From positions 117,488 through 181,487 of the forward strand of contig CBFGKH010000006.1 in NCBI GenBank assembly GCA_965649295.1: DNA of 64,000 nucleotides. The letters are read 5' to 3'. Below the pieces are notes generated by a model. The model saw only the letters and a list, made by a program, of their open reading frames with translations, was not told the DNA's origin and did not search any database. The stretch comes from a candidate division WOR-3 bacterium (GTDB taxonomy: Bacteria > Hydrothermota > Tepidihabitantia > Tepidihabitantales > Tepidihabitantaceae). Position numbers and translations under genes: made by a program. This document shows, piece after piece, positions 421-61,378 of the stretch; position 1 is the stretch's first letter, and each line of letters starts with the position of its first letter.

Positions 421-1863
421 CTACCGCTGCAAGACCACCTTCTGCGTGGCCCGGTAGTTGCCAGCCGCAAAGCGCACAAGATACACGCCCGGCGGCAGTA
501 GCCGGCCGGTCGCATCACGACCGTCCCACCACGTATTCGGCGCGCATAGCAACCGCACCAGCCGGCCCGTACCATCGTACACCCCAATCGCACCGGCCTG
601 ACTTGGGGTCGAGATGTGGAACGACCCGCGGCCGACGCCGGGACGAACCGAGATACGCTCCGCTGCCACCGACTGCTCCCCACCAAGCGCAACCGGATAC
701 GGCGCGTTCCACCAGCACCCGTTCAACCCTGCTCCAACAAAGACGCAGCCCGCACCGGTAAACGGCCCACCCGGCAAATAGCAAAGCTTTGGCCGCACCT
801 CGGAGCCGGTTCCGACGCTGCCTTGATTGATGAGCAGAGTATCCGACCATTGGGTCGGGCTGGCCGCGTGAACGAAACGACGGTGAACACGCCGGACTAT
901 GTCATCATCAACGATGTAGGAGGCGTTGACGTATTGGTTGCCGGGACTCGTGTAGTTCCGCAAGTCAGGAAAGCATTCATCGTACGCTGCCGTGCCGGCC
1001 AGAAAGGCCGGCGCAGACCAGGCAATACCGCCGTTCGTTGAGAAGCTGTACTTGATGTCCCAGTCGCCCGAGTTCTGGTAGTCTTGTGACCAGAGCATCC
1101 AGACCGTGGCGGCTGATTCGGGCTGCGTGAACGCGGCCGCGACGACCGGGTCTGCCACCTCATCCGAGTCGGTAGTCACGAGGCCGTACTCCCACGCACT
1201 CGCGTTCAGATACTGGCGGTTCGTCCAGATGTGAACCGCACCGCCCTGCCAGCGGCTGTGCGCTGCAAAGTAGATACGCGAACCCGCGCCAGCCGCGAGG
1301 TATGGGTCACGGACTTGAACCGCATAGCTGTCAACGAATGCCCAGCTGCTGCCGTAGTCAACCGATCGCAGGAACCGAAGCGCCCGGTATCCACCCACTG
1401 CCTGCGGGTTAGTAACTGCCGCATAGAGCCAGTAGTCCGAACCGGTATAGTCACGGCAGAATGCGAAGTCGGTAATAGTGTCGGGCCCGACCGCCACCGG
1501 CGACTGCACCGGCATACCGCCTTCGTTGTAGCGAATCTGCCACAGGTCGCCTCCCTGGTAGTTGATGAGGTAGAACAAGTGAATCGCGCCGGAGTCGCCC
1601 TCACCAACCACGAGCTGCAGCTTGTCGAAGAGGTCGCCGGCCCGCCGCAGCGAGAAACGCGCTTCCCACGCTCTTCCGTATCCGAGCGACTTGTACAGGT
1701 AGGTTGTGCTGTCCTCGAGCACGGTGAATGCAACCCACATCGTGCCGTCCATTTCGTAGTCAGCAGCCGTGGCCACGACGGTCCCGCTGTGTATCAGTAC
1801 ATCAGGTTCCGGCCAGGCAGCAGCCGGCGTGAACAACAGAAACGCAAGCAGTAGCTGCTTCAC
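421..1863 (-). CDS. Secreted BNR/Asp-box repeat (sialidase-like beta-propeller) protein with C-terminal FlgD-Ig/T9SS-like sorting domain
   Basis: Signal peptide (KQLLLAFLLFTPAAA); Asp-box motifs YKSLGYGRAW, LRSVDYGSSW, FSTNGGIAW; C-terminal WDGRDATGRLLPPGVYLVR. GTG at 1863 chosen because SD GGAGG lies about 5 nt upstream. Confidence 0.8.
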   Translation of the reverse strand: MKQLLLAFLLFTPAAAWPEPDVLIHSGTVVATAADYEMDGTMWVAFTVLEDSTTYLYKSLGYGRAWEARFSLRRAGDLFDKLQLVVGEGDSGAIHLFYLINYQGGDLWQIRYNEGGMPVQSPVAVGPDTITDFAFCRDYTGSDYWLYAAVTNPQAVGGYRALRFLRSVDYGSSWAFVDSYAVQVRDPYLAAGAGSRIYFAAHSRWQGGAVHIWTNRQYLNASAWEYGLVTTDSDEVADPVVAAAFTQPESAATVWMLWSQDYQNSGDWDIKYSFSTNGGIAWSAPAFLAGTAAYDECFPDLRNYTSPGNQYVNASYIVDDDIVRRVHRRFVHAASPTQWSDTLLINQGSVGTGSEVRPKLCYLPGGPFTGAGCVFVGAGLNGCWWNAPYPVALGGEQSVAAERISVRPGVGRGSFHISTPSQAGAIGVYDGTGRLVRLLCAPNTWWDGRDATGRLLPPGVYLVRFAAGNYRATQKVVLQR

Positions 1864-1875
1864 TTGCACCTCCCC

Positions 1876-2418
1876 TCAGCGCTGCAGAACTATCTTCTGG
1901 GTCGCGCGGTAGTCGCCGGCAGAGAACCGCACGAGATACACGCCGGCCGGCAGTAGCCGGCCGCACCCATCGCTGCCGTCCCAGGCAACACTGTGCGAGC
2001 CACGCCTGACACTCGACGCCAGAAGCTGACGGACGACGCGACCGATCAGGTCGTGTACGGCCAAGAGGACCGGACCATCGCCGGCCAGCGAGTAGCGGAT
2101 GACCGCCTGACTCCGGGTCGGATTCGGCGCGACCGTCTCCAGCCGCGTGACCAGCACCGCTCCGCCCGCTCTAACCTCGCCCGGTTCTTGAATGCCAACA
2201 CCGTAGTCCGGCAACCAGAACCCGGCAAAGACCGCAAGGCCCGATGCAGTCGAGAGACCAACTGCAGTCTGGCCAGCGGTCGAGCCGGACTTATATGCGC
2301 TCGAACTCATCTCGCCGCCGGCAATCCCGTTCACGGCCCAATCACAGCGATAGGACTGGGCGAGACAAACAGCAGCGAAGACTGTGACGAGCACCATCGA
2401 AACCAGCTTTGACTTCAC
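1876..2418 (-). CDS. Small secreted protein: Gly/Ser-rich N-terminal module (DWAVNGIAGG..GSTAGQ..AGFW) plus FlgD-Ig/T9SS-like C-terminal domain
   Basis: Signal peptide; PNP..IRYSL..WDGSDGCGRLLPAGVYLVR C-terminal domain; GTG at 2418 follows SD GGAGGT. Confidence 0.8.
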   Translation of the reverse strand: MKSKLVSMVLVTVFAAVCLAQSYRCDWAVNGIAGGEMSSSAYKSGSTAGQTAVGLSTASGLAVFAGFWLPDYGVGIQEPGEVRAGGAVLVTRLETVAPNPTRSQAVIRYSLAGDGPVLLAVHDLIGRVVRQLLASSVRRGSHSVAWDGSDGCGRLLPAGVYLVRFSAGDYRATQKIVLQR

Positions 2419-2444
2419 TGTTACCTCCATCGGGTCACTTCCCG

Positions 2445-4463
2445 CTATCTCTCTATCGGCTCCGGCAGCGGTAGCTGCTCAGTTGTGCCGGTAACCGACG
2501 CCGGAGTCGCGGCGGTTGCCGTTTCAAGCGGCCCTGGCGCTTCGGGCAAACGGAGACCCTCGTTGCCCTTCCATTTGGCGAGCACCCGCCAGGAGAATCG
2601 GGCATCGCTCTGCCCGCCCTGTAGCTCATAGACGTCGAACCCGGTCGCGTTCTTTTTCACATAGACGCCTCGGCAGTCATCTTCGAGCTGAACAAAGACC
2701 TTGAGCGGATGCTCGTCATTGACAGTAATGCAGTCAACGAAGACCGGTTCGAGATTGATGCGGCAGTGGCCGTTGACCAGTTGTCCCACACCGGCGTCCT
2801 CGAAGTAGGGTTCAGGCATCTCCGGCGCAAACAGGGTCTTGCGGCCATCCCGCGTCGCCATGATTGTACTCACCGTGCCGTTGCCAAGTATCTTGTAGTT
2901 GGTCGTGCCGTTGTAGTAGCTGACATAGGCATACGCACCGTAGCCGTTTGAGAAGTAGCCACCCTGGCCCACCCCAGTGCTGCTGGCACGGCCGTAGATG
3001 CCACAGCTTGTTCCCACACCAGCCACGCCGCTGCCCGCGGTCAGATACGATCCGGGTGAACCCTGGCCTGTTGCCAATAGCCCGGTACCAGAGGAGTTCT
3101 GGTTGCCGGCAAACAGACCAAAACCGGTCGGGCTGTTGGCCAAGCCGTAGATGCCGTAGCAACCGCCCGAAGTGTTCGTGGCGTAGCCGCAGGCGCCATA
3201 GACAGTGCCGGTAAAGGCACCGCCCGCACCACTGGACGGGTTCTCAAAAAAGCTGACGCCATTGCCAACGCCAATGACGCCGGTGCCGTTTGTCGCGTTG
3301 GCTTTTAGATAGCCGCCCTTACTGCTACCGACAAAGGCGCCGCCGCAGCCGCCAGTCGGCACGCTGATGCTCTGCCCCTGACCAGCGCCGACTATGCCAA
3401 CCCCACTGGCATTGCCATTGTAACCTGCCACACCGTAGCAGCCCGAGGTGTTAGTCTGGCCATAGACACCGTCGGCCACTGTTCCGCCACTGCCATACAC
3501 ACCAGGATAGGACGAGGTCCCCGACTGTCCATACACACCCGCAGCATAGGTTCCGCCATTGCCGTAGATGCCCGGTGCCGCACTCGAATTGGCCACGCCG
3601 TAGAACTGACCTGCCCGGCACGTGCCACTCATCCAGAAATTGCCGGTCTGGGCACTGGCATACTGATTGCGAATATAGCGGTCATCACCCCAGACCGAGT
3701 CAAACCGCACCGTGCCAGTGGTCGTAATTGGGTTGGGCGTGCAGACCACGCCAGCACCCTGACTGACACTAGTAACCGTGCCGCCACCCGACACTCCAAC
3801 GCTGTCGTTTGCCGGAACCCACGCCGAACCACTCCACTTCATCACCTGACCGGTCGAGGCGCCCATCCGCCCAAGGTCAGCAGCCGCAATCGTGCCGTCG
3901 CTAATCATCGCCGATGTCACCGCGCCAGCCTGCCCTTCGTTGACATACCGGCTGTCAAGCGCAGTCGTGTCCTTGCCCTGCAGCAGGTCAGCATTCGCCG
4001 CCCGCTCGCTGAGATACGCATACGCGGCACTAGCGATTTGCAGACGCGGAGCCAATTCTGCGCCACCACCAACCGCCATCCCCAGATAGACCGCTCCTCC
4101 GTCCGGTATCGTACCGATTGGTGTCACTGATCCAAGCAGCACCGAAAAGAGCCCAGCTCGGGTGCGCACACTCTGAGTTTCCTCCCAGAACTGGGTCCCG
4201 CCGCTCGGCTGACTGTACAGCCGGAACCGTATTGAGTAGAGCGTGTCTGCCACCGGCAGGCCCAAGGTGTCGGTCAGCTTGCCTTGATACGACAGCAGCC
4301 GCGGTATCGTGATGGCATCAGTGCCGCCGACAACTGCCGATGACAGACGTTGGGTCTCGTTGTTCTGCCATCTGACTTCTGGCTTCTCGCCTCTGGCTTC
4401 ATTCTGTGCCACAGCCAATACTACAGCCGTCGCCAGCACGAGCATCGTGACTCTCTTCATCAT
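2445..4463 (-). CDS. Secreted tail-fibre-like protein 1 (YQGKL N-terminal domain, Gly-rich GVYG repeats, phage-fibre-like C-terminal domain)
   Basis: Signal peptide; LLSYQGKLTD..YSIRFRLY; ANADLLQG and GQVMKWSGSAW fibre motifs; many GVYG/GIYG repeats; C-terminal PEPYFEDAGVGQLVNG..VFVQLEDDCRGVYV..GFDV..FSWRVLA. SD AGGAG overlaps the upstream stop. Confidence 0.75.
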   Translation of the reverse strand: MMKRVTMLVLATAVVLAVAQNEARGEKPEVRWQNNETQRLSSAVVGGTDAITIPRLLSYQGKLTDTLGLPVADTLYSIRFRLYSQPSGGTQFWEETQSVRTRAGLFSVLLGSVTPIGTIPDGGAVYLGMAVGGGAELAPRLQIASAAYAYLSERAANADLLQGKDTTALDSRYVNEGQAGAVTSAMISDGTIAAADLGRMGASTGQVMKWSGSAWVPANDSVGVSGGGTVTSVSQGAGVVCTPNPITTTGTVRFDSVWGDDRYIRNQYASAQTGNFWMSGTCRAGQFYGVANSSAAPGIYGNGGTYAAGVYGQSGTSSYPGVYGSGGTVADGVYGQTNTSGCYGVAGYNGNASGVGIVGAGQGQSISVPTGGCGGAFVGSSKGGYLKANATNGTGVIGVGNGVSFFENPSSGAGGAFTGTVYGACGYATNTSGGCYGIYGLANSPTGFGLFAGNQNSSGTGLLATGQGSPGSYLTAGSGVAGVGTSCGIYGRASSTGVGQGGYFSNGYGAYAYVSYYNGTTNYKILGNGTVSTIMATRDGRKTLFAPEMPEPYFEDAGVGQLVNGHCRINLEPVFVDCITVNDEHPLKVFVQLEDDCRGVYVKKNATGFDVYELQGGQSDARFSWRVLAKWKGNEGLRLPEAPGPLETATAATPASVTGTTEQLPLPEPIER
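3820..4315. repeat. Dispersed direct repeat copy 1 (coding N-terminal domain of fibre 1)
   Basis: Long stretches match 7310-7802 by eye, e.g. gccgcaatcgtgccgtcgctaatcatcgccgatgtcaccgcgcc. Confidence 0.85.
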
Positions 4464-4469
4464 CTCTCC

Positions 4470-5984
4470 TTACTGCCCAATCAGGGCAAAGCTCTTTGAG
4501 CAAGCAGCGGTCCCGCCGAGTCGGCAGAAGTAGCTACCGGCCGGCACTCTTCTCCGTCCATCATCCGTTCCATCCCACCAGGTCCAGCATTCCTGCCCGG
4601 TGCCGCGCACAGCAAGCCGCCTCACGTTCCGGCCCAAGGCATCGCTGATGAGCAGACTGCCGTCTGCACCAGCCGGGAGTTGCCAGCGCAGCCACGCGCC
4701 GCCGGGTGCCGACCGAACCGCCAGCACGACGTCCGCTGCCAGCGGTGCAGACTCGACGACGCCGGTGCTGTCACCCTCAATCGTCGCGCGCCACGCGAAT
4801 CGCCAGCCACCGGTCTCGACCAGCTGCGTGGCCACCGCCACCAGGACAATCGTGTCATACTGCCATCCCGGAATGACAATCGAACCGGTATCAAGCGAGT
4901 TCGGTAGCAATATGCGGTATTCACGCGGTATCGAGCCAAGTCCCAGCACATAGACGTCCCAGGTGCGGCCATCCTCACCGTCAAAGAAAATTCGCACCCG
5001 ATTCTGACCAAAACCGGTGAACCCGACAAACTTGCAGCCACCGGGAGCTTCTGGCAACCGGTCGGTGGCTGAATCAATGACCGGATACTGGGCGTACCAG
5101 TGATAACACCGACTCGTCTGCCAGTCCTCGGCATCCTGGAAGTGACGGCTGTCGTCGCGGCTGCCCGTGAACCAGCGCCAAATCGCATAGTGCCCCAGCG
5201 CCCGCTCCATTGTTGAGCTGTAGTAGTTGTAGAGCGCAACCCAGGTGCCCCACCAGGTGTTCTCGCCACCCTGCGCGCCGAGTTGCTCCCAGACCCGGCG
5301 CGGACAGACCGGGTCTGCATAGTATTCGTGCAGGAACCTAGGCCAAAGCCAGCCCGGATAGGTGAATCGGCTCAGTCGAAAATGGGTGCTGTCCAACGGA
5401 TGGCGAAAACCGTTAAGCCACCACGCACCGAATCCCCAGCCTTCCATTGTCCAATCGCTCATCCACTCGGCAGTGTTCTCGTAGAACGATGTAATCTCCA
5501 CTCCGCTGTAGCGAGCCTGGCAGGCGTGATTGAACTCATGGGCGATGACCAACCGCAAACCACTCCAGTTCAGACCAGTCCTGATTTGAATAAAACAGGT
5601 CCAGCCATCAGGGTAGGGTTCATCATACTGGTCTTCCGGCGATGTCAGTCCGTCCCAAGCGCTCGTATCCACAAGATAGACGTCGAGCCTGCTGTCCGGC
5701 CCTTGCTGGTCTGGTGCTGGCGCGGCCCATCCCAGGGTATCCACCTGGCGCCACCAAGCGCGAGCGACATACGAGCTGGCTGACTCGGCATAGGCATGCG
5801 TCGTTGCGTGCCGACCAGTCGTGTCATAGTGAACCCAGCAGCTGCCGCTGCCAGTCCGGCACTGACCAACTGCTGGCCGGTGGGCCAAAATGCCGGCGCG
5901 AAACTGGTCAAGCCGCTCCGGTGTTCCGCAGACCAGCCCGCCAGACGGCGCTGCCAGTAACAGAACCGCCAGCAGCGCGCTCAC
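4470..5984 (-). CDS. Secreted zinc metalloprotease (HExxH, MXAN_6640-like) with FlgD-Ig/T9SS-like C-terminal domain
   Basis: IAHEFNHACQ zincin motif and downstream FYENTAEW; C-terminal WDGTDDGRRRVPAGSYF. GTG at 5984 overlaps the upstream TGA (GTGA) and precedes a signal peptide. Confidence 0.8.
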   Translation of the reverse strand: MSALLAVLLLAAPSGGLVCGTPERLDQFRAGILAHRPAVGQCRTGSGSCWVHYDTTGRHATTHAYAESASSYVARAWWRQVDTLGWAAPAPDQQGPDSRLDVYLVDTSAWDGLTSPEDQYDEPYPDGWTCFIQIRTGLNWSGLRLVIAHEFNHACQARYSGVEITSFYENTAEWMSDWTMEGWGFGAWWLNGFRHPLDSTHFRLSRFTYPGWLWPRFLHEYYADPVCPRRVWEQLGAQGGENTWWGTWVALYNYYSSTMERALGHYAIWRWFTGSRDDSRHFQDAEDWQTSRCYHWYAQYPVIDSATDRLPEAPGGCKFVGFTGFGQNRVRIFFDGEDGRTWDVYVLGLGSIPREYRILLPNSLDTGSIVIPGWQYDTIVLVAVATQLVETGGWRFAWRATIEGDSTGVVESAPLAADVVLAVRSAPGGAWLRWQLPAGADGSLLISDALGRNVRRLAVRGTGQECWTWWDGTDDGRRRVPAGSYFCRLGGTAACSKSFALIGQ

Positions 5985-7921
5985 TTCAGCCCCGTAACCG
6001 CTCGTTCTGTCGGAGACGGCGCCGACTGGCAACGCCGACCAACCGCAATCCAGTCGAATGTCACTTCCGCCCCCTCGTCCGACTCGACCCGGAATCCGGC
6101 CACACTCTTGGCCGCCACCCAGACTCCTTTGCAGCGCGATGTCGGTGTGACCGTCACCTGCAGCCCTTCACCTTCCAGCGCCTGACTGAACCCAATCGGG
6201 AACTCCACTTCGGCCCTGCCATCAGCCAGTCGGGCCGAACCCGAGGCCACGACCTGTTGCTCTTGTCCAATCAGCCCATAGCCGGTCACGCCATCTGCCA
6301 GCCAGGTCTGCCAACCACCGGTGGCGTAGCCGTGTCCCTGCACATAGAAGCCGCGAATGCCAGCACCAGTACCGGTGTTGTTATAGGCGGTCAGGGCGTA
6401 GTTGTCGTTGTTGTTGTTCCGAAAGTGGCCGCCCGCACCGTTGTTGCTGTTGGCATAGACACCGTAGCTACCGGCATTGGAGACAAGCACGCCCATCGCA
6501 TTGGCGTTCGGCGTGTACAAGGCGTAGTTGGCATTCGTCACCTGCACGCCGTCGTCTCCCGCACTTGCTATCTGGATGCCGTCAATGCTTGCCGTGCCGA
6601 CGACCACCCCGAACTGCGCTGAATTGATGCGGAAACCCTGATTGGCGGTATCAACCTGCACGCCGGTCGAGTCCGCCTTCAGCACACGCACGCCATCCTT
6701 GCGCGCCCGCTGCACATAGGCGCCGTGAGCATTGGCCCGCGCCACGTGCAGCCCGTGCGCGCCAGCCCGGTCAATCGCGAACCCGGACCAGCCGCAGGAA
6801 TCGGCGTGAAACCCGTGATGCCCGCTGAACCCGGCATCGAAGCCGTTCATAGTGACAGCGGTGTCAACCTGCACGCCGGTCGTCTGCGCTCGCACGACCT
6901 CGATGCCATCGGCACCGGCGCGGCCGACATACACACCTTCCCAGCCAGTGTTCCCTATCCAAATGCCCAACGACTGGGCCGAGTCAATCCGCAAGCCGTT
7001 GCCTTGTGACGCCAGAACCTGGACGCCGTTCTGCGTTGCCCGCTCTACAAACAGCCCGGCCTGGGCACTGTCCACGCGCACGCCGAACAGACCGGCTCGA
7101 TCCACGGTCAGGCCGTTGTAGCTTGAGCGCCAGACCCGCATCCCGTAGTCACCGGCACGAATCACCGCGATTCCGCCGCCCGCGCCGCTGTTGTTCGCCA
7201 GCAGCACCGCGCCGGTTCCGGCCACCGCCGCATCAAGCGTGCAGGGCTTGACAATATCACTGCCGCGCACCGGCCCGGCACCGATCCCGATGCTGTCATT
7301 ACGCGGCTGCCACGCCGAGCCGGTCCACTTCATCACCTGCCCGGTCGCAGCGCCCATCTGCCCAAGGTCACTAGCCGCAATCGTGCCGTCGCTAATCATC
7401 GCCGATGTCACCGCGCCGGCCTGCCCTTCGTTGACATACCGGCTGTCAAGCGCAATCGTGTCCTTGCCCTGGAGCAGGTCGGCATTCGCTGCCCGCTCAC
7501 TCAAGTAGGCATAGGCCGCGCTCGCTATCCGCAGCCTCGGAGCCAGCTCGGCGCCGTTCACCGCCATCCCAAGATAGACCGCACCTGCGTCCGGCACCGT
7601 GCCGATTGGTGTCACCGACCCAAGCAGCACCGAGAATAGCCCGGCTCGGGTGCGCACGGACTGGGTCTCCTCCCAGAACTGGGTACCGCCGCTTGGCTGG
7701 CTGTACAGCCGGAAGCGAACCGAGTAGAGCGTATCTGCCACCGGCACCCCCAAGGTGTCGGTCAGCCTGCCTTGATACGATAGCAATCGGGGAATGGTAA
7801 TATTGTCGGTCGCGAAAGTTACCGCGCCTGCCTGGCGAGACAACCCCGGCTGCTCCAAATGAGCACTAGCCAGCGCCAGCACCCAAAGCGACAGCAGTAT
7901 CAGCACGTTCCGTACGACCAT
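5981..7921 (-). CDS. Secreted tail-fibre-like protein 2 (paralog of 2445-4463) with 10-11-aa beta-repeat shaft
   Basis: ATG at 7921 after SD AGGGAGG; N-terminal domain nearly identical to fibre 1; repeats G-hydrophobic-x-V-x-x-A; C-terminal VVASGSARLADGRAEVEFP..VTVTPTSRCKGVWV..GFRVES..FDWIAVG. Confidence 0.75.
   Translation of the reverse strand: MVVRNVLILLSLWVLALASAHLEQPGLSRQAGAVTFATDNITIPRLLSYQGRLTDTLGVPVADTLYSVRFRLYSQPSGGTQFWEETQSVRTRAGLFSVLLGSVTPIGTVPDAGAVYLGMAVNGAELAPRLRIASAAYAYLSERAANADLLQGKDTIALDSRYVNEGQAGAVTSAMISDGTIAASDLGQMGAATGQVMKWTGSAWQPRNDSIGIGAGPVRGSDIVKPCTLDAAVAGTGAVLLANNSGAGGGIAVIRAGDYGMRVWRSSYNGLTVDRAGLFGVRVDSAQAGLFVERATQNGVQVLASQGNGLRIDSAQSLGIWIGNTGWEGVYVGRAGADGIEVVRAQTTGVQVDTAVTMNGFDAGFSGHHGFHADSCGWSGFAIDRAGAHGLHVARANAHGAYVQRARKDGVRVLKADSTGVQVDTANQGFRINSAQFGVVVGTASIDGIQIASAGDDGVQVTNANYALYTPNANAMGVLVSNAGSYGVYANSNNGAGGHFRNNNNDNYALTAYNNTGTGAGIRGFYVQGHGYATGGWQTWLADGVTGYGLIGQEQQVVASGSARLADGRAEVEFPIGFSQALEGEGLQVTVTPTSRCKGVWVAAKSVAGFRVESDEGAEVTFDWIAVGRRCQSAPSPTERAVTGLK
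7310..7802. repeat. Dispersed direct repeat copy 2 (coding N-terminal domain of fibre 2)
   Basis: See copy 1; differences are mostly synonymous. Confidence 0.85.
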
Positions 7922-8014
7922 GGCGGTTCCTCCCTTGGTCGAACTAGCTCCTGCCTTCCGACACGTCCATGCTGCGGACCGGCCACGGCCCAGACCCGGC
8001 CCGAGTGACAAGCC

Positions 8015-8042
8015 AATCTAAACCAATGACGAGAAAGGTCAA
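8015..8042 (-). promoter_or_regulatory. Sigma70-like promoter of the fibre operon
   Basis: TTGACC-N16-TAGATT on the minus strand, about 90 nt upstream of ATG 7921. Confidence 0.55.
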
Positions 8043-8054
8043 GTAGGAACAGGA

Positions 8055-8083
8055 TTGCCCGGAGCCTGCTCTTTCCGTATAAT
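8055..8083 (+). promoter_or_regulatory. Sigma70-like promoter of the small membrane protein gene
   Basis: TTGCCC-N17-TATAAT, divergent from the fibre operon promoter. Confidence 0.55.
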
Positions 8084-8114
8084 AATTAGCTGGCTAGGTT
8101 GGATAGGAGTGGAT

Positions 8115-8369
8115 ATGTCAAACAACCTCTCAGACCGCTTTGCCTTTGATGCCGAACGGCTGCGCCGCATCCGCGCCATCGAGGAACAGACCGAGCCCGG
8201 CTACCGCCCCAATCGCGATTTCTATTCTTACCTGCGCTTGTTCCTCGTGCTCGTCCTGATTGGGATTGCGGTCGGCTACCTCTACGTCCACCGCGAAAGC
8301 GTCATCGAATGGGTCCGCCAACCAGTGGCAAAGCCACCGGTTGACACCCTGCCGGCCGACGATTTCTAA
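8115..8369 (+). CDS. Small single-pass membrane protein (84 aa)
   Basis: SD AGGAG before ATG 8115; transmembrane segment LFLVLVLIGIAVGYLYV. Confidence 0.7.
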   Translation: MSNNLSDRFAFDAERLRRIRAIEEQTEPGYRPNRDFYSYLRLFLVLVLIGIAVGYLYVHRESVIEWVRQPVAKPPVDTLPADDF

Positions 8370-21784: not shown

Positions 21785-23194
21785 ATGCTGGGGCTGCTGC
21801 TCGGGCTGATTGCATCTCCGCTGTCCGGGCCGGGCGACATCGGCCAGGCCTTCTTCAACCAGTCCTGGTGCCAGCAACCTACCAGCGGCCACTACCAACC
21901 ACCGCTGCCGCGTTCACTCGGCCTCGGCCAGGTTCTCCTTGACTCTGGCCCGATTACCGCCTACAGCGTCTGCACCGACACTAGCGGCACCGTCTGGCTC
22001 GCGCTCGCCCGAGCTGATGATACCCTGCGCCTACTCGCCTCCCACGACCAGGGTCAGACCTGGCAACAACAGCAATGGCTCTATGCTGGAGCGCCGCTCC
22101 GTCAGGTCAGGCTGCTTTCGCCGGTGGCTGGCCCGGTTGTCCTGCTGGCATTCGTTCTGGTCGCGAGTGGTGACGGTGACCTCTGGCTCTGGCGCGTCAA
22201 TCAGGACACCGGCTCGGCGCTGCTGCCGGTTGTTGTTGGCCCGGATACGATTGACGACTTTGCGGTGGCGCTCGACCGCACCACAAACTACTACACCTAC
22301 TGTGTCTATGTCAACGAGCGCCGGGCCGGCCGCACCGGTGGCTTCATCCGCAGTAGCGACCAGGGCCAGACCTGGAGTCCAGAAACCGACTTCTGGAACG
22401 CCCACGACCCCCAGCTTCTCGCCACCAACAGTTCAATGGTGCACGCTGCCTGGCGCTTTGCCATCGGCGGCACCCAGCTTCACTATGCCTACAACCGTCA
22501 CTGCGGAACACCCCGGTACTGGTCAACGGTTCGGACTCTCACCGCCAGCCGCTACCGCCACTCCTCACCGCTGTTGGCTCAGGCTGACACCGGTGGCGGC
22601 TACTGGTCAGCGGTCTGGGCATTCTCGACCGTCTATCGCTACGACACCCTCAGCCGCGAGATTGAGTATGCTTGGAGTCCCACTAACGGCGACTGGTGGT
22701 TCACCGGCAAAGCCTTGGGCAACAGCTTTGTCGAGCAGTGGCCGGTCAGCCTTGCCAGCGACCCGACCGGCCCGGGTGGTTTTGTCGGCCTGCTCTACCT
22801 TTCCGGCCGGATTCTGGCGCTCGACTCACTCCAGCTCTACTGGCGCTGCGCCAACATCTACAGCCCTGAGTTCTGGACCCCGCCGGTGCTGGTCAGCTCC
22901 TCGCCGGTCATCCCCGAACCGGCACCGCAGCTCTGCCATGTTCGGTTTGGCGACTGGCGCGGCCCGCTCGTCTTCTACTGCACCGCCGACTCCGCCCTCA
23001 ACATCGGCGCCGGCTGGCTGCCACCACCAAGCGACACCTCCCCGCGGCCAATCGTTGCCGGCCGCACCCCAAAGCCAACCGCCGCCATCTACGATGCGCT
23101 TGGCCGCCGCGTCAACCCGCAAAACCTTCGGCCCGGCATCTACTTCTACCGTCCGACCACCGGCCCCAGTTGCCGAACTCTCCTCCGACCCTGA
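21785..23194 (+). CDS. Secreted BNR-repeat protein, paralog of 421-1863, with short degenerate sorting tail
   Basis: SHDQGQTW, RSSDQGQTW; shares VGPDTI.DFA motif with 421-1863; tail IYDALGRRV..LRPGIYF. Confidence 0.7.
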   Translation: MLGLLLGLIASPLSGPGDIGQAFFNQSWCQQPTSGHYQPPLPRSLGLGQVLLDSGPITAYSVCTDTSGTVWLALARADDTLRLLASHDQGQTWQQQQWLYAGAPLRQVRLLSPVAGPVVLLAFVLVASGDGDLWLWRVNQDTGSALLPVVVGPDTIDDFAVALDRTTNYYTYCVYVNERRAGRTGGFIRSSDQGQTWSPETDFWNAHDPQLLATNSSMVHAAWRFAIGGTQLHYAYNRHCGTPRYWSTVRTLTASRYRHSSPLLAQADTGGGYWSAVWAFSTVYRYDTLSREIEYAWSPTNGDWWFTGKALGNSFVEQWPVSLASDPTGPGGFVGLLYLSGRILALDSLQLYWRCANIYSPEFWTPPVLVSSSPVIPEPAPQLCHVRFGDWRGPLVFYCTADSALNIGAGWLPPPSDTSPRPIVAGRTPKPTAAIYDALGRRVNPQNLRPGIYFYRPTTGPSCRTLLRP

Positions 23195-26221: not shown

Positions 26222-28336
26222 CTAGGAGCCGAGTAGGGTCAGGGTGATGGTGCTGCTCTCGCCTTCGCCAGCCAGTCGGCAGAAATAGACGCCGGTCGCC
26301 AGTCGGTTCCCGAACTCGTCAAGTCCGTCCCATCCAACCGAATGCTCGCCAGCACCAAGGTAACTGTCGAGGAGCGTGCGCACTGCCCTGCCCGACCGGT
26401 CAAATATCGTCATCCGCACCCGCTGCCCTAGCTGCAGGCCAAACCGAATGGTTGCCCCATAACGAACCGGGTTGGGTTGCACCCAAAGACGCTGGCCGAC
26501 TTGGCTGATTGTTGGGCCGGTCCTTGCCAAGGCCAAGGGTGGAGTTTGGTAGTGCTCAATCGGGTAGCCGGGCTCGAGGTCACGACCATTGAACCCGGGA
26601 AAGTCCGGGGCATAGCGTGTTGCCCGGAAGACACTGCTGCTACTAGTCGGGTCGTCGCCCTGCACCAGCGGTGCGGCGGCGACCGGATTCTGGTAGCGCC
26701 AGACAATCCTGCAGTCGGCGGCGACTTCCCGGAAGTTGCCCTTGCCGCCCTCGCAGATCAGGGTATTGCCGTTTGGCAGTCGGTGCGCTCCTGAGATGTA
26801 GGCCGAGAAAAGACTGGAAGGCGGGTCGGCCCGATAGCTCCAGACCAGTTCGCGCGGGCCGTGCGGAACGCCCGGCAACGGCCGTGGATAGCGGCCGGTG
26901 CTGTCTGCCGGCGGCGTGAACTCATCAACTGTCGAGAAACTGCCGCCCGGCCGGTTCAGGCCGTTGTTGTACACCATCAGGTTGCCGGCGCCGGGCAGGC
27001 CGGGCTCAATCCAACGGACGTCGTGCTGGCCAAAGAAGACCTGGTCCATGGCGGTGCCGGCGCGATAGGCCTGGGGATTGCCCCAGCGGTAAAGGATGTC
27101 GCCGCCCATTCCTTGCCGGCCTCCGGTGTGGCCGCGAGCTTCTTCGGTAGTGGTGCTGTGGTCAATTATCCAAATCTCGTTCAGGTTGCGAACGCTGAGC
27201 GCAATCTGGTCCAGCTCAGGGTTGTAGTCAATCGCATTGATGTGCAGCCAGTCTGGGTAGTTTGTGCCGAAGTTGATGTCAACCAGTTCGGGGTGGTCGG
27301 CGACGACGCCGTAGTTGGCTTTGGTTGAGTCGTAGTCTTGAATGAGGTGGTCCCAGACGTGCCATTCCCAGACGATGCGGTTGGTGGCGGGGTCAACCTC
27401 GATGACGTGGTCGGGCCGGAAGCTGTTGAGTACCAGTCCCGGCCGACGACCGGCTGCCAGGGCTTCGGCCCTTGTTTTTGACTCGTAGGCCACCATCAGC
27501 ACGTGGCCGTTGGGCATTGGTTCGACGTCGTGATGCTGACAGTGGAGCGTGTCGGCACAATTGAACGCCCAGATCAGGTTGCCGTTCCAGTCGTAGCGCT
27601 CAACCCGGCCGCCCGGCGCCGAGAACGGGTTGTTGACGCTGGCTGGCCGCAGCAGGCTGCCGTCGGGCAGAAGATAGGCAGAAAGCCCGGGCGTGTACGC
27701 ACTCTGCCACGACCGAATTAGTCGGCCGCAGTTGTCAATGAGATAGGTCTTGGTGGAAAGGATTGGAGCAAAGAGCGTGTAACCCGGCGACGCGCCGCTG
27801 TCGTTCTGCAGTAGCCCAACTGTCGTCCGCTCGGCCGAAAGCTCAACTGCATAGCTTCCGAGTGAGGAATCAGCGCGAAGGTCGTTCCAAGTCCCGACTC
27901 GCCGGCCAACAGCCTCACCGAGATTGACGGCATTGGCGCCACCGGCATTGTCCGGTTCACCGGCTGTCCAGTCCCGGTAGTTCATCGGCTCGCCGGTAAT
28001 CCAGGTCCAACCGCTGTCCGGCTCTGGCGAACCAGCCGGCTGATACCCACCCAGCCATGGTCCAGCCAATCTGCCGTCTGGCCGTTTTCGCCAGAAACGA
28101 TCGGCGTCGGCCTGTGCGAACAGAAATGAATCCTCGGCCGGCGAGGTCAGCGTGGCGAGATAGCCGCCGCGGGCCACTGCTGAGTCATTGGCCTGATACC
28201 AGTTTATCCCCCTATCAACGTTGATGACGTGATAGTAGTGAATCGTGCCGTCAGGATGAACCCACGGCTCCGGCTGGGCGAAAACCGTTCCGGCAAGAGA
28301 AAGAGCAATAGCAACGAACAGTGACTTTGGTCTCAT
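26222..28336 (-). CDS. Secreted C-type lectin + aryl-sulfate sulfotransferase (ASST) + FlgD-Ig/T9SS-like domain fusion
   Basis: Lectin: GGYLATLTS..WLGG..GEPDN..WNDL. ASST: QHHD, WLHINAIDY, LSVRN, GQHDV. C-terminal PNP..WDGLDEFGNRLATGVYF. Confidence 0.85.
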   Translation of the reverse strand: MRPKSLFVAIALSLAGTVFAQPEPWVHPDGTIHYYHVINVDRGINWYQANDSAVARGGYLATLTSPAEDSFLFAQADADRFWRKRPDGRLAGPWLGGYQPAGSPEPDSGWTWITGEPMNYRDWTAGEPDNAGGANAVNLGEAVGRRVGTWNDLRADSSLGSYAVELSAERTTVGLLQNDSGASPGYTLFAPILSTKTYLIDNCGRLIRSWQSAYTPGLSAYLLPDGSLLRPASVNNPFSAPGGRVERYDWNGNLIWAFNCADTLHCQHHDVEPMPNGHVLMVAYESKTRAEALAAGRRPGLVLNSFRPDHVIEVDPATNRIVWEWHVWDHLIQDYDSTKANYGVVADHPELVDINFGTNYPDWLHINAIDYNPELDQIALSVRNLNEIWIIDHSTTTEEARGHTGGRQGMGGDILYRWGNPQAYRAGTAMDQVFFGQHDVRWIEPGLPGAGNLMVYNNGLNRPGGSFSTVDEFTPPADSTGRYPRPLPGVPHGPRELVWSYRADPPSSLFSAYISGAHRLPNGNTLICEGGKGNFREVAADCRIVWRYQNPVAAAPLVQGDDPTSSSSVFRATRYAPDFPGFNGRDLEPGYPIEHYQTPPLALARTGPTISQVGQRLWVQPNPVRYGATIRFGLQLGQRVRMTIFDRSGRAVRTLLDSYLGAGEHSVGWDGLDEFGNRLATGVYFCRLAGEGESSTITLTLLGS

Positions 28337-48400: not shown

Positions 48401-49371
48401 CGGTCAAGGGCAACAACAGCCTTGAGTTCTACCGCTACGACGTGACCACTGATAGCTGGCAGGCATTGCGCGAGGTCCCGCCCGGCAACCACAAGATCAA
48501 GGCTGGCGCCGACCTCGCCTATGTGAACTACGGTGACACCGGCTATGTCTATCTCCTCAAAGGCTACCGCAACGAGTTCTACCGCTACAACACCGTAAGC
48601 GGCGAGTGGCAGACCGAAACCCGGGCTCCGGACCGGGCCAGCCCTAAGTACGACAAAGGTTCATTCCTTGTCGGCGACGGCACCGGTGTGCTCTATGTCC
48701 ATCAGGCCAAGTTCCACCGGCTCTACCGTTACGACGTCGCCACCCGCGCCTGGAGTGCCGATACCTTGCGGGGCATGCCGTTCGTCTCCCGTGTCTTCAA
48801 CCGCACCCGCCAGTCCAAAGACGGCGGCTGCGCCGCCTGGTCCAACGGCATCATCTATGCGCTCAAGGGCAACAACACCCAGGAGTACTACCGCTACTTC
48901 CCAGCCCATGACTCCTGGCAGGAACTTGACACAATGCCGCAATGGGGCCGGCTCACCCAACGCAAGCGGAAGGTCAAGTCCGGTGCCGATATCACCAGCT
49001 ACGAGCCAGGCGTTATCTTTGCCCTCAAGGGCAACAAGACCAACGAATGCTGGCGCTGGAAAGACTGGCCAACCGCCTACTCGCTATCGCCCCAGCGCGA
49101 CGGCATTGCCACCAGCTATTTGGCTGGCGACTATCAGTTGACGATTACCCCCAATCCGCTGCGCACTGGCTTCCTCTGCCTGACCACCGGCCCGCTCTAT
49201 GACCGTGCTACGCTCTCTGTCTTCGATCCGCTTGGTCGCCGCGTCCTCACTCGGCCGCTTACACGCTCGTCCGCTCAACTCGACCTGCGTTCCCTGCCGA
49301 GCGGTGTCTATCTCCTCCGCATCGATCTCGGCAGCAGCCGGTTCACCCGCAAACTGGTAATCGAGCACTAA
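45430..49371 (+). CDS. Large secreted multidomain protein: DNRLRE-like domain, six CARDB-like Ig repeats, Kelch-like propeller, T9SS-like C-terminal domain
   Basis: Signal peptide; repeats beginning HDVG/RDV/RDIG/TDIG..P; YAIKGN..FY.YD...W repeats; PNP..FDPLGRRV..LPSGVYLLR. Confidence 0.85.
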   Translation: MMMRQMSLLTAIILVGLAAAQTGVDLSQAGYLPAGTEIVELRTADARHYSNGDGTITAVIEALNPGGPNPQPFDVTTLSSGYTCFIEKMTVLWITYYSRTTGDFHVGYYTESGGTIQERGMAEWQLGSIPDNATVSSVSCSTRCFNSGYNWPTSVPLYEMTNRPSTTPNDNPGNTTLFNDAGDGVQYATYTGFANDIWLHATLNGAAPLVQSRLTGGDWFALGYSYTGSGSAYEAGFYGAWGNYAPKLRVTYTVPATHDVGVTQILAPTGTVDSGAQVTPSCIVQNYTSSSASYIVRLKVGPNGSYYNGTASVTNHPGNSSLTVTGFSPPMYANWPRNTAIAVTCSTELTGDANNNNDKATTSVQTRVRDVQPTIWYQPPTNVDSGVTVTPSVRVQNNGTVLATFNVRFWTSDGFSSTKTVTNLSANGGQDIVDFDPWTITTRGTVACTCATLLSDDMIRANDSISRNVSVAVRDVRAVAITAPVAVDSGVPVTPEATVQNLGTAAATFPVRLFVDGVPHGSDKWVNNLAPGLPPVAVTFDEWTPNRHGSFVLRCSTMLANDMVPINDTVSRTVSAMVRDVRPMRINVPAAEIDSGPPLLPNVTVENVGPNPSGPFDVRLTIGAWSDLYHLDNLAPGETARIGFHSWQPQRGTWPIELVTLLAGDANPGNDTIRSSVTVAVRDIGVGSILAPAGNVRRGTVITPRIAITNYGNQPALANAELVIKDEFGTVLHTAQARDVAVPVAGLDNLPLEPDWPATNLGRFQAVARTVYGDDMHPENDTDSTYFDVVAGSTDIGVQRIWSPAGTIDTGTTVVPTVWIYNPGELTADGDAFFTITHASETVYSATAAIVGLAPGESTEISFDGWPGPHPVGSYVGRCSVALAGDENPANDTLSRPFTVVARTNWPSGWQEVSNLPAPPSNRQVKDGGWIAGPAANGLLYAIKGNKVRDFYAYDPIADSWTRKADFGSSSSRLPGKGGAAIADGGRYIYAVKGNNSLEFYRYDVTTDSWQALREVPPGNHKIKAGADLAYVNYGDTGYVYLLKGYRNEFYRYNTVSGEWQTETRAPDRASPKYDKGSFLVGDGTGVLYVHQAKFHRLYRYDVATRAWSADTLRGMPFVSRVFNRTRQSKDGGCAAWSNGIIYALKGNNTQEYYRYFPAHDSWQELDTMPQWGRLTQRKRKVKSGADITSYEPGVIFALKGNKTNECWRWKDWPTAYSLSPQRDGIATSYLAGDYQLTITPNPLRTGFLCLTTGPLYDRATLSVFDPLGRRVLTRPLTRSSAQLDLRSLPSGVYLLRIDLGSSRFTRKLVIEH

Positions 49372-58999: not shown

Positions 59000-61378
59000 C
59001 TAACGCTGTACCACCAGCTTGCGGTTTAGGGTATAACTGCCTGCGGTCAGCCGGCAAAAGTAAACACCCGGCGCCAATCCGGCCAGGTCCAGATTCCACG
59101 TGCCGGTAGTGGCAGCGATTGCTGGCCCCCGCTGGACGAGTCGGCCGGCCTGGTCGTAGAGGCTGAGCTTGACTGTGCTTTGGGTGGGCACCGAGAAGGT
59201 GACCGTCGCTGTCCGCCGGGCTGGGTTCGGCCCAACCCCAAGCGCGACGCGCGGCGCTGGTTCTGGCATTGGGTCGGCGACAACGCCGGTGCCGCCACCA
59301 CTAGTCCAGACCGCGGCATTGTGAATCACCCTCGCCCAGCCACCACTACGCCGACTGTTGCCGTTGACGCCCGGGTAGGAGTTGATGCCCACGACGCGAC
59401 GGTTGGCGCTCGCGGCAACGTAGTATTCGCCGTCGTCCCATTTGGCAACTGAGTCGGCGCCGCTGGCCAGCCCAACATCGCAGATGTAGTAGTCGCCAAC
59501 GGTGCTGACACCGGTCATTACCGGATGGCTGGAGTTATACCAACCGAGCAACCGGTTGTTGAAGCTAAGGCCGCCGGGAACCAAGGTTCCGTAGGCGCCG
59601 GTCATTATCCTGCCTGCCAACTGCCAGCCGCTCGCAAATGAGAAGTTCGTGAGCACCACCCCTTTGCCGGCATCAACATAGTCGGCGAGGACGTTGCCCA
59701 GCGCAACCGGGTCGGCAAAGGCGTAGTTGGAGAAGGCGATGACCCCGTCGTAGGGCAGTAGCTCGGCCAGGGTCGGGGTTGCCGACTGGACCGAACGGTA
59801 TTCGACCGAATCGCCCAGCGCAGTGAGCGCCGCGCCCAGGCTGTCGGGCAGCCCGTCGTCGGAGTAAAGCACCAGTAGCCGCAGCCGCGACGACGGAACA
59901 ACGCACATGAGGCCGCGCGGGTCTAGGGCGATGGTGCCGGAGGCGATGAGGGTGCGGGCTGGACTGAATACTTTGAAGGTGTTGGTGGAGTAGCCGCTGT
60001 GGGCAACGTAGTACTGGCTGCCGTCCCAGGCGACAAATGCTGGGTCACCAGTGCCGCCGCCAATGTCCCAGGTGGCGTCGTGGGTGATTGTGCCGCCATT
60101 GAAGCGGGAGCAGGCATAGCCGTAGAGGAGCGAGCTGGTCCCGCACCAGATGGTGTCACGGGCCAAGGAGAAATTGTAGGGGTGAGGTGAGATGTTTATC
60201 GTCGTCAGATTGATGAAGTTACCAGTCAGGTCATACTTATAGACTCTGTTGCCAAAGGGCACATAGAGGAACTGGCCGTCGGTGCGCACGGCGGTGTTGG
60301 CCGGATTGGCTAGGGTGAAGTCGGTGTATGTGCCGTCGGCAGTCCGGTGGCGGCGCAGGGTGGTGCCGGTGCTGACTTCGTAGATGTATTGGCCGGCCGG
60401 GTCGGCGCCGACGCGCGATTGGCCGCTCTGGAAGTTGAAGGGTGGCCGGCAGTTGCCGGGTGCCGGGTTGGGCACTTGACTTTTGGGGCAGCCGTAGAGG
60501 ATGTTGGTGACGTCGTAGTTTTTGAAGTAGAGCGAGTCGGGGTTGAGGAAGCCGGTGAGCGGCTCGTGCACCCGGAACCGCCAGATCCAGTTGCCGTAGA
60601 AGCAACTGGCATAGACGCAGCCGCCGATTACCGGGTCTGCTTGGAAGCCGATGCCCGAGAGGTAGCTCGGCAGGCCAGTGGGGAAGGTGTCGGTTGGGGT
60701 CCAGGTGTTGGCGACTGTGTCGAAGCGGCAGTACATTACGAGATAGGTCCCGCTTGATGAGTGCGGCATTGACCAGAGCCGGTTTGGGTACGTCCGGTCG
60801 AGCACGAGGTCGCGGGCGGTTGTCGGCAGCACCACTCCGCCCGACTGGGTGAGTGAGCGGAGGACGTTGCCGTTTTGGTCCATCGTGTAGATGGTCAGGT
60901 TGTTGGGGGCCGAGAATGTCGTGGCCCAGAACTTGCTACCGTCCCAGTCGAGGCCGCGCACCTGCCGACCACCGGTCGGAGCGAACTGGCGGACAAAAGT
61001 CCCGCCGAGGGTATAGACCTCACAGTACTCGGGTGAACCGAGCCGCGACACGCAGATTGAGTCTGCAAAGGCGCAGATGGCGATGACGGGATCGCTGCCC
61101 CGGGTCGGAAATGAACCGATGAGTGCGCCGGTCAGCCGGTTCCGGTAGTGGACCGCACTGTCCTGGAGCGCGCAGAAGACGGTGTCGTTGCGAACGTAGA
61201 TGCATTGATAGAGTGTCTGGCTCGGTAGCGAGTCGAGCTTGACCCACATTGAGTCATCGGTCGGTCGTGGTGTTGTCGGCTTGGCCGGGATGGCGGTGCT
61301 AAATGGCTCGGTCGCATCCGGCCCGAGCGCCGCCGCTATGGCAACGACGAGCGCGAGTGATAACAGTGTCTTGGACAA
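59000..61378 (-). CDS. Secreted multidomain protein (beta-propeller-like regions, GATase-like alpha/beta module) with T9SS-like C-terminal domain
   Basis: TTG 61378 after SD AAGGAGG; signal peptide; GLDWDGSKFW; C-terminal PNP..YDQAGRLV..LAPGVYFCRL..KLVVQR. Confidence 0.8.
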   Translation of the reverse strand: MSKTLLSLALVVAIAAALGPDATEPFSTAIPAKPTTPRPTDDSMWVKLDSLPSQTLYQCIYVRNDTVFCALQDSAVHYRNRLTGALIGSFPTRGSDPVIAICAFADSICVSRLGSPEYCEVYTLGGTFVRQFAPTGGRQVRGLDWDGSKFWATTFSAPNNLTIYTMDQNGNVLRSLTQSGGVVLPTTARDLVLDRTYPNRLWSMPHSSSGTYLVMYCRFDTVANTWTPTDTFPTGLPSYLSGIGFQADPVIGGCVYASCFYGNWIWRFRVHEPLTGFLNPDSLYFKNYDVTNILYGCPKSQVPNPAPGNCRPPFNFQSGQSRVGADPAGQYIYEVSTGTTLRRHRTADGTYTDFTLANPANTAVRTDGQFLYVPFGNRVYKYDLTGNFINLTTINISPHPYNFSLARDTIWCGTSSLLYGYACSRFNGGTITHDATWDIGGGTGDPAFVAWDGSQYYVAHSGYSTNTFKVFSPARTLIASGTIALDPRGLMCVVPSSRLRLLVLYSDDGLPDSLGAALTALGDSVEYRSVQSATPTLAELLPYDGVIAFSNYAFADPVALGNVLADYVDAGKGVVLTNFSFASGWQLAGRIMTGAYGTLVPGGLSFNNRLLGWYNSSHPVMTGVSTVGDYYICDVGLASGADSVAKWDDGEYYVAASANRRVVGINSYPGVNGNSRRSGGWARVIHNAAVWTSGGGTGVVADPMPEPAPRVALGVGPNPARRTATVTFSVPTQSTVKLSLYDQAGRLVQRGPAIAATTGTWNLDLAGLAPGVYFCRLTAGSYTLNRKLVVQR

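Follow-up and report, generated by a model that had tools for sequence, protein, structure and literature searches.

Mosaic adhesive trimer (MAT) fibres, which were introduced in 2024 as the means by which Bdellovibrio recognizes its prey, carry a conserved β-rich N-terminal domain (N-domain) of about 130 amino acids (aa) right after the signal peptide, and their paralogues have this base in common and differ in shaft and tip, some ending in Peptidase_S74 (S74) and others not (Caulton et al. 2024, PMC10769870). The N-domain has no homologue in the PDB, and its partner on the cell surface is unknown (PMC10769870); a review of Bdellovibrio predation from September 2026 names no surface partner for it. 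In bacteria of the Candidate Phyla Radiation (CPR), the Pam pili have a predicted tip pilin, PamT, which beyond its N-terminal part has a truncated Ig-like pilin fold, and a tail-fibre-like gene is central in the pam gene neighbourhoods (preprint PMC13278184). The DNA analysed here, referred to as the window, is a stretch of 64,000 nucleotides (nt) from a candidate division WOR-3 bacterium (contig CBFGKH010000006.1). Its subject is a block of five tightly spaced genes, all on the minus strand (421-7921), which includes two genes for MAT-like fibres, fibA and fibC, and a small gene whose product is a putative adaptor for them.

The fibre N-domain and a short module of the small protein, called the GFW module below, are kept as a pair of adjacent genes in at least eight phyla, while the other neighbours and the anchoring end behind the module change from lineage to lineage. 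By this pattern of sequence conservation the small partner protein stands out as a strong candidate for the mount by which cells hold such fibres. The reading that we favour, with a probability of about 0.55, is that the module docks to the fibre N-domain and that the C-terminal part of the adaptor fixes the fibre to the surface. No papers describing the fibre-adaptor pair were found.

Two MAT-like fibres and their small partner

Both fibres, fibA (5981-7921, minus strand, 646 aa) and fibC (2445-4463, minus strand, 672 aa, ATG start), have a signal peptide, and a sorting domain is absent from both. They are 77% identical over the first 216-227 residues and unrelated beyond (BLASTP). The common N-terminal modules (aa 1-216 of fibA, 7274-7921, minus strand; aa 1-227 of fibC, 3783-4463, minus strand) carry the motif IPRLLSYQG[RK]LTD, with YQGRL in the β-rich domain of fibA and YQGKL in that of fibC. 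The shaft that follows is made of short repeats of the GVQVDTA / GLRIDSAQ type in fibA and is Gly/Tyr-rich with G-x-Y-G repeats in fibC. The two ends again belong to one domain family: a profile of fibC tip homologues, started from the last ~100 aa of fibC, matches the tip domain of fibA (aa 556-631; 6029-6256, minus strand) with E 5.4e-18. The corresponding tip domain of fibC comprises aa 546-647 (2523-2828, minus strand) and is followed by a 45-aa tail.

The NCBIfam model Bdello_MAT_N matches the two fibres weakly, with E 1.9e-6 for fibA (27.8 bits) and 5e-6 for fibC, both under its cut-off of 60 bits. A profile of 111 WOR-3 N-domains picks up, with E 7e-19, the N-terminal end of a fibre of 1923 aa from a Bdellovibrionales metagenome-assembled genome (MAG). 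Judged by the base domain and the mosaic build, fibA and fibC are new members of the MAT kind. The N-terminal region of fibC has 585 homologues, for the most part in WOR-3, and many of the WOR-3 relatives among the 120 matches listed have a Peptidase_S74 (PF13884) C-terminal end; by analogy with these relatives, fibA and fibC would be trimers. As a stand-in for a co-fold, AlphaFold2 was run on a read-through chain in which a WOR-3 fibre with a frame of 434 aa continues into its adaptor, using 18 paired rows together with unpaired rows. In this single chain the N-domain is a confident β-rich fold, with a predicted local distance difference test score (pLDDT) of 91-97, and the shaft, modelled as a monomer, stays below 65. 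A Pfam scan of both fibres and PDB sequence searches with each gave no match, and when the read-through model was compared by Foldseek with the structures of PDB and BFVD, nothing meaningful came up and the N-domain had no relative in the PDB.

The connection of the fibres to phages lies at their distal end. The fibC tip domain, which also ends fibres of Chloroflexota and Ignavibacteriota, has a match with E 5e-7 at the very C-terminal end of a tail protein of 1857 aa from Lactobacillus phage 3-521 (Herelleviridae). The N-domain has no match in 50,697 phage records nor in IMG/VR, and the same holds for the GFW module; a PHROGs scan of the fibres gave one weak match, to the fibA shaft, by a family of unknown function (E 0.006). 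The locus is phage-derived in the tip domain only.

The adaptor gene (1876-2418, minus strand, 180 aa; GTG start preceded by GGAGG) encodes a signal peptide, the 53-aa GFW module (aa 20-72, AQSYRCDW...GFWLPDY; 2203-2361, minus strand), a short linker and a type A sorting domain of the type IX secretion system (T9SS; 1879-2133, minus strand; TIGR04183, 34.2 bits against a cut-off of 23). Its sorting domain places the adaptor among the T9SS type A cargo proteins. The module follows the pattern AQSYRCDW...GG...SSSAY...TAGQT..G...GFW, and when the matches are read side by side it resolves into three repeats of a unit of ~18 residues, S-x-x-Y-x-L...G. The 71 full-length adaptor homologues, mainly from WOR-3, are 41-73% identical, and the module is better conserved among them than the linker. 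In an AlphaFold2 model of the adaptor (65-row alignment) the sorting domain is a β-sandwich with pLDDT ~95 and the module reaches only ~40; in the read-through chain most of the module lies below 50, with the middle repeat rising to 83, a local gain in confidence only. In most adaptors two Cys residues are conserved, one in YRCDW and one in YRCG, and they are probably linked in a disulfide that joins repeats 1 and 2. The window adaptor has Ser at the second of these positions (residue 45, YKSGS, 2270-2290), as do a few relatives.

A profile search with the module (E up to 0.001) returned 1382 cluster representatives. Across these proteins the module lies directly behind the signal peptide, and the C-terminal ends that follow it differ: T9SS sorting domains, dockerin repeats with a Cys-rich tail, or a short [FY]LP[LV]..[RK] tail, the last on module proteins of only 95-125 aa. 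In CPR bacteria the module is joined to the body of PamT, and module proteins match about positions 26-80 of the 241-position PamT model (NF058579) with E down to 1e-9. The window adaptor itself scores 18.9 bits (E 7.6e-4) against the PamT cut-off of 240, over about residues 8-69 only (the scan used a 184-aa form of the adaptor, in which these are residues 12-73). As the match is limited to this one stretch, the module is common to both proteins and the adaptor is not a PamT; the window also holds no pam genes. A natural fusion of N-domain and module was not found among 120 fibres and ~220 module proteins. The tail of the 95-125-aa Chloroflexota module proteins, in its fuller form [FY]LP[LV][ILV]x[RK], also ends unrelated larger proteins (P0241, P0341), and it looks like an undescribed Chloroflexota C-terminal sorting tag.

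The pairing of the two genes was surveyed from both sides. Starting from the adaptor, 35 loci of the WOR-3 type with 39 adaptor modules were collected from species-representative genomes. In 32 of the 39 a fibre frame, recognized by its N-domain and/or tip domain, ends 48-114 nt before the module; of the other seven, two lie behind a protease, one has a fibre frame that ends 372 nt upstream, and four have less than 915 nt of upstream DNA. A single adaptor is common to arrays of one to three fibres in the WOR-3 loci. Starting from the Chloroflexota-type module (ten loci, from Anaerolineae, Thermoflexia, Bellilinea, KSB1 and Zixibacteria), an N-domain protein of 370-450 aa is encoded immediately upstream on the same strand in nine, the Zixibacteria locus being the sole exception. 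Starting from the fibre side, with the YQG[RV]LT N-domain, a module gene lies directly behind the fibre in 24 of 43 informative loci, which come from KSB1, Bacteroidota, Ignavibacteriota, Calditrichota, Eisenbacteria, Methylomirabilota, Chloroflexota and WOR-3. The partner in the Fibrobacterota-Chlorobiota-Bacteroidota (FCB) group has 178-190 aa and consists of module and T9SS domain, in the same layout as in the window. A second subfamily of N-domains, with the motifs YNFTFRLYDA and GGNLLWTE, occurs in CPR bacteria, Bdellovibrionales and others.

The spacing of the two genes is conserved as well. In 25 of 29 WOR-3 pairs the open reading frame (ORF) of the adaptor is in frame with that of the fibre and begins 1-3 codons past its stop, and these 25 junctions read stop, GGAG, spacer, ATG; at the window junction (2419-2447) the two genes are 26 nt apart and not in frame. 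The in-frame junctions probably reflect conserved translational coupling. Programmed read-through of the 25 junctions seems unlikely and was set aside, because the pairs of the window and of Chloroflexota are out of frame and because the spacing suits a stop codon followed by a Shine-Dalgarno site and an ATG.

Several further observations were made during the survey. Three-fibre tandem arrays occur at six loci (L055, L058, L013, L012, L094 and L096); those of Ignavibacteriota, of a 'Deltaproteobacteria' MAG and of WOR-3 have one module gene behind the last fibre, and in those of Saprospiraceae and Lewinellaceae a module gene is not detectable. The Chloroflexota fibres are short, ~370-400 aa (L040-L047; for example 6721-7842 in L042, where the module gene follows at 7842-8198, and 6733-7863 in L046). 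A 992-aa ORF with a MAT-like N-domain (E 7e-22) lies on a contig of an Aenigmatarchaeota MAG (L115, 900-3875; a DPANN bin) and could be due to a binning error or to transfer.

The original prediction, made from the letters of the window, had described exported fibres that lack a sorting domain and end in a phage-fibre-like domain, followed by a 180-aa protein that is little beyond a Gly/Ser-rich module and a sorting domain; the tip profile and the phage 3-521 match agree with the former, and the TIGR04183 score and the delimited module with the latter. It had also pointed to a link between such modules and YQG[RK]L fibres across phyla, which the neighbourhood survey confirms for the YQG[RK]L subfamily.

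Proposed mounting of the fibres and competing explanations

By combining these observations it is possible to propose how the fibres might reach and hold the cell surface. All five proteins of the locus would be exported by Sec. The GFW module would then dock to the conserved N-domain common to both fibres, probably by adding strands to its sheet. The sorting domain of the adaptor would take the fibre-adaptor complex through the T9SS and leave it on the outer surface, so that in WOR-3 the fibre may rely on the adaptor to cross the outer membrane. The β-propeller and the HExxH protease encoded in the same locus might use the same secretion route and have optional roles, in glycan handling and in fibre maturation or release. 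A T9SS-borne adaptor would explain both the exit and the attachment of fibres that have no sorting domain of their own.

We infer the docking and mounting from the following pattern. The pair is kept while all other neighbours change, and the N-domain stays constant in it; the module too is constant, its anchoring end is exchanged by lineage, and it does not appear to fold by itself. Exchange of the anchor between lineages is what an adaptor of this kind would be predicted to show, as read from the sequences of its relatives. The gene anatomy, the homologies, the conserved pairing and the exchange of anchors are observed; binding, co-export, the trimeric state and the accessory roles are deduced from them. 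The original prediction of domesticated fibres anchored through the adaptor thus stands in part: the fibres are of a cellular, MAT-type kind with a tip shared with phages, and the adaptor is a dedicated partner across phyla whose anchor is exchanged, the mounting itself being deduced from the pairing. It is weakened for Chloroflexota, whose fibres carry a lipobox, so that the adaptor is not simply the only anchor in that phylum.

Several observations weigh against this proposal. The lipobox of the Chloroflexota fibres (the Cys of LAGC or LGGC) lies directly before the YQGRL motif, and the partner is therefore not needed there as the sole anchor. An adjoining module gene is absent at 19 of the 43 YQG-type fibre loci, and an adjacent partner is present at only two of 28 loci with the N-domain of the Bdellovibrionales/CPR type (26 are without one). 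The protease occurs in only two of the 35 other WOR-3 loci. As a co-fold there was one read-through chain, modelled from 18 paired rows, and its adaptor differed from that of the control run. Finally, to our knowledge there is no precedent for co-export through the T9SS of a protein without a sorting domain.

It is also conceivable, although unlikely in our view, that the small protein helps in assembly as a chaperone, or in secretion as a pilot: it would sit on the fibre base transiently in the periplasm, keep the N-domains in register or hand the fibre to the T9SS, and not be part of the finished structure. Such a helper would fit a module without a fold of its own, the lipid anchor that Chloroflexota fibres already have, the provision of one adaptor gene for arrays of up to three fibres, and the translational coupling suggested by the tight and conserved start-stop junctions (25 of 29 with stop-GGAG-ATG in frame). 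It would, however, have no need of dockerins, T9SS sorting domains, sorting tails or a pilin body, all of which put the protein outside the cell. In another and clearly less probable explanation, the module protein forms the foot or the tip of a thin filament, or of a matrix layer, that is distinct from the fibres, comparable to the CPR Pam pili with PamT as their predicted tip pilin, and the fibres are co-regulated with it or attached to it. The match of the module to the PamT model does fall in its N-terminal part, a PamT-like gene occurs in a Saccharibacteria locus together with a 2535-aa N-domain fibre and a Pam pilin, and the central place of a tail-fibre-like gene in pam neighbourhoods (PMC13278184) is in keeping with this. 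The window and the WOR-3 loci, however, are without pilin, chaperone or usher-like genes, and the WOR-3 adaptor is only module, linker and sorting domain, far below the PamT cut-off.

The adjacency could mean co-regulation and nothing else, so that fibres and small protein are independent secreted surface proteins. The locus does hold unrelated cargo with sorting domains, the protease and the propeller, and the fibre-adaptor contact is deduced; we nevertheless think this improbable, since the pair is kept in at least eight phyla while other neighbours and the partner's anchor change, and in fibres that are mosaic elsewhere it is the N-domain end that stays conserved. Least probable of all, to the point where we give it very little weight, is the view that the locus is left over from a prophage, tailocin or contractile injection system whose particle the fibres would serve. 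The tip domain that ends a Herelleviridae tail protein and the relatives that end in Peptidase_S74 would suit a particle of this kind. Against it, each of the five proteins carries a Sec signal peptide, neither the N-domain nor the module was found in the phage and IMG/VR collections, PHROGs is silent but for the E 0.006 match in the fibA shaft, and no phage genes were found on the upstream flank, where the 5' neighbours are a divergent small gene and genes for elongation factor P (EF-P), a glycosyltransferase and an ATP-binding cassette (ABC) ATPase. The downstream flank is the 420 nt that remain to the end of the window; within these bounds the remark of the original prediction that phage genes do not flank the locus holds.

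A wider form of the docking proposal is possible, although we hold it more tentatively. The GFW module may be a general docking handle for YQG-type MAT-like fibres, the end fused to it setting the place of mounting, and in phyla with a T9SS trimeric fibres without a sorting domain may cross the outer membrane by riding on the adaptor. If this is true, the fibres would be the first hitch-hiking cargo of the T9SS, and a candidate would have been named for the unknown partner of the MAT N-domain.

With this locus and its relatives, a large sister group of MAT-like fibres comes to light in many uncultured phyla, in which the fibres mostly come with one small partner whose anchoring end varies with the type of host envelope. 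The pair is a concrete candidate for a fibre mounting mechanism; it links YQG-type fibres with the tip of the CPR Pam pilus and makes it conceivable that fibres are exported piggy-back through the T9SS. Fibre and adaptor together would be a simple two-gene unit for displaying swappable binding tips on bacterial surfaces.

Layout of the locus and the accessory genes

The five genes follow each other from fibA to the propeller gene, geneE. A sigma-70-like promoter-like site (8015-8042, minus strand; TTGACC, a 16-nt spacer and TAGATT), found by a consensus scan as a match to consensus only, lies ~94 nt 5' of fibA. The fibA stop and the protease start overlap in GTGA (5984-5981), the protease stop TAA merges into a GGAG with the fibC ATG 6 nt on, and the gaps are 26 nt from the fibC stop to the adaptor start and 6 nt from the adaptor stop to the geneE start. 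The close coupling of the five genes had been read correctly in the original prediction, as re-reading of the junctions showed. The G+C content is uniform throughout the locus, and the names borne by close homologues of its proteins point to candidate division WOR-3. DNA of the locus was detected in hot-spring metagenome runs, all of them DNA runs with no RNA runs among them.

The protease gene (4470-5984, minus strand, 504 aa, GTG start) matches NCBIfam MXAN_6640_HExxH (NF045524) with 77.3 bits (E 1.6e-21), below the cut-off of 140, over positions 1-260 of 290 and has the motif HEFNH; its C-terminal FlgD_ig/T9SS-like tail scores 18.6 bits with FlgD_ig, under the cut-off. GeneE (421-1869, minus strand, 482 aa) encodes a BNR-like β-propeller with a sorting-domain tail at 427-609, which reaches 19.0 bits with TIGR04183, under the cut-off of 23, and is 58% identical to the adaptor tail. 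A PDB sequence search with geneE gave a weak FlgD match to its tail only (E 0.04), and its WOR-3 family has members with BNR repeats (PF02012, PF13088) and a sorting tail. Of the three proteins to which a FlgD/T9SS-like C-terminal domain had been assigned, the adaptor scores above the cut-off, and the tails of geneE and the protease score below theirs but resemble the adaptor tail.

In other loci a homologue of geneE lies behind the adaptor (L007, 80% identical; L009; L027), a protease homologue lies between fibre and adaptor in L006, and a protease fragment precedes the adaptor in L014. The protease and the propeller are most readily understood as optional cargo that is expressed along with the core pair. 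The place of the protease within the fibre system, as first suggested, is weakened: given its rarity in the other WOR-3 loci, it is not a core part.

Elsewhere in the window, a paralogue of the geneE propeller is encoded at 21932-22987 on the plus strand (26% identity over 362 aa), and three more T9SS-like sorting tails occur at 26228-26482 (minus), 59003-59236 (minus) and 49141-49365 (plus); the organism therefore encodes many such cargo proteins. No papers connecting WOR-3 with type IX secretion were found.

Relation to known systems

The window fibres resemble MAT fibres in the order of signal peptide and β-rich N-domain, in a base common to the paralogues, in the split between S74 and non-S74 relatives and in tips shared with phages. 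They differ from them in that they come from a WOR-3 bacterium of hot springs, which is not known as a predator, and in that their N-domain forms a distinct YQG[RK]L subfamily, well under the Bdello_MAT_N cut-off. The one Bdellovibrionales locus examined had no module partner within 10 kb, whereas the window-type fibres are paired with a small module protein.

With PamT the adaptor shares the GFW module, which aligns with about positions 26-80 of the model, and a PamT-like gene is found near an N-domain fibre in Saccharibacteria. The rest of PamT is missing from the WOR-3 adaptor, which has a T9SS sorting domain in its place and no pam pilins or chaperones nearby. In the Saccharibacteria MAG (L107, 7211-19331) the PamT-like gene (E 1.8e-11), a 443-aa ORF, the 2535-aa MAT-like fibre and the Pam pilin (CPR_Pam_pilin_C, above cut-off) stand within 12 kb on one strand, directly behind rpoB and rpoC. 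This cluster fits the remark in the preprint on a tail-fibre-like gene in pam neighbourhoods.

The arrangement can also be compared to the attachment of phage tail fibres. The conserved N-terminus of such fibres docks on the baseplate or on an adaptor protein, and the locus likewise combines a conserved N-terminal mount, a variable distal end and a small gene that comes straight after the fibre gene. Unlike those of phages, its mount and small partner are absent from the phage collections searched, and the partner bears cellular anchoring signals; with housekeeping genes upstream and an N-domain that has no phage match, the locus does not belong to the prophages or tailocins. Like the T9SS type A cargo of Bacteroidota, the adaptor has an N-terminal Sec signal and a sorting β-sandwich that scores above the cut-off. 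Ordinary T9SS cargo works by itself, as an enzyme or an adhesin, whereas the functional part of the adaptor is only ~75 aa long and appears to be a handle for a protein without a sorting domain.

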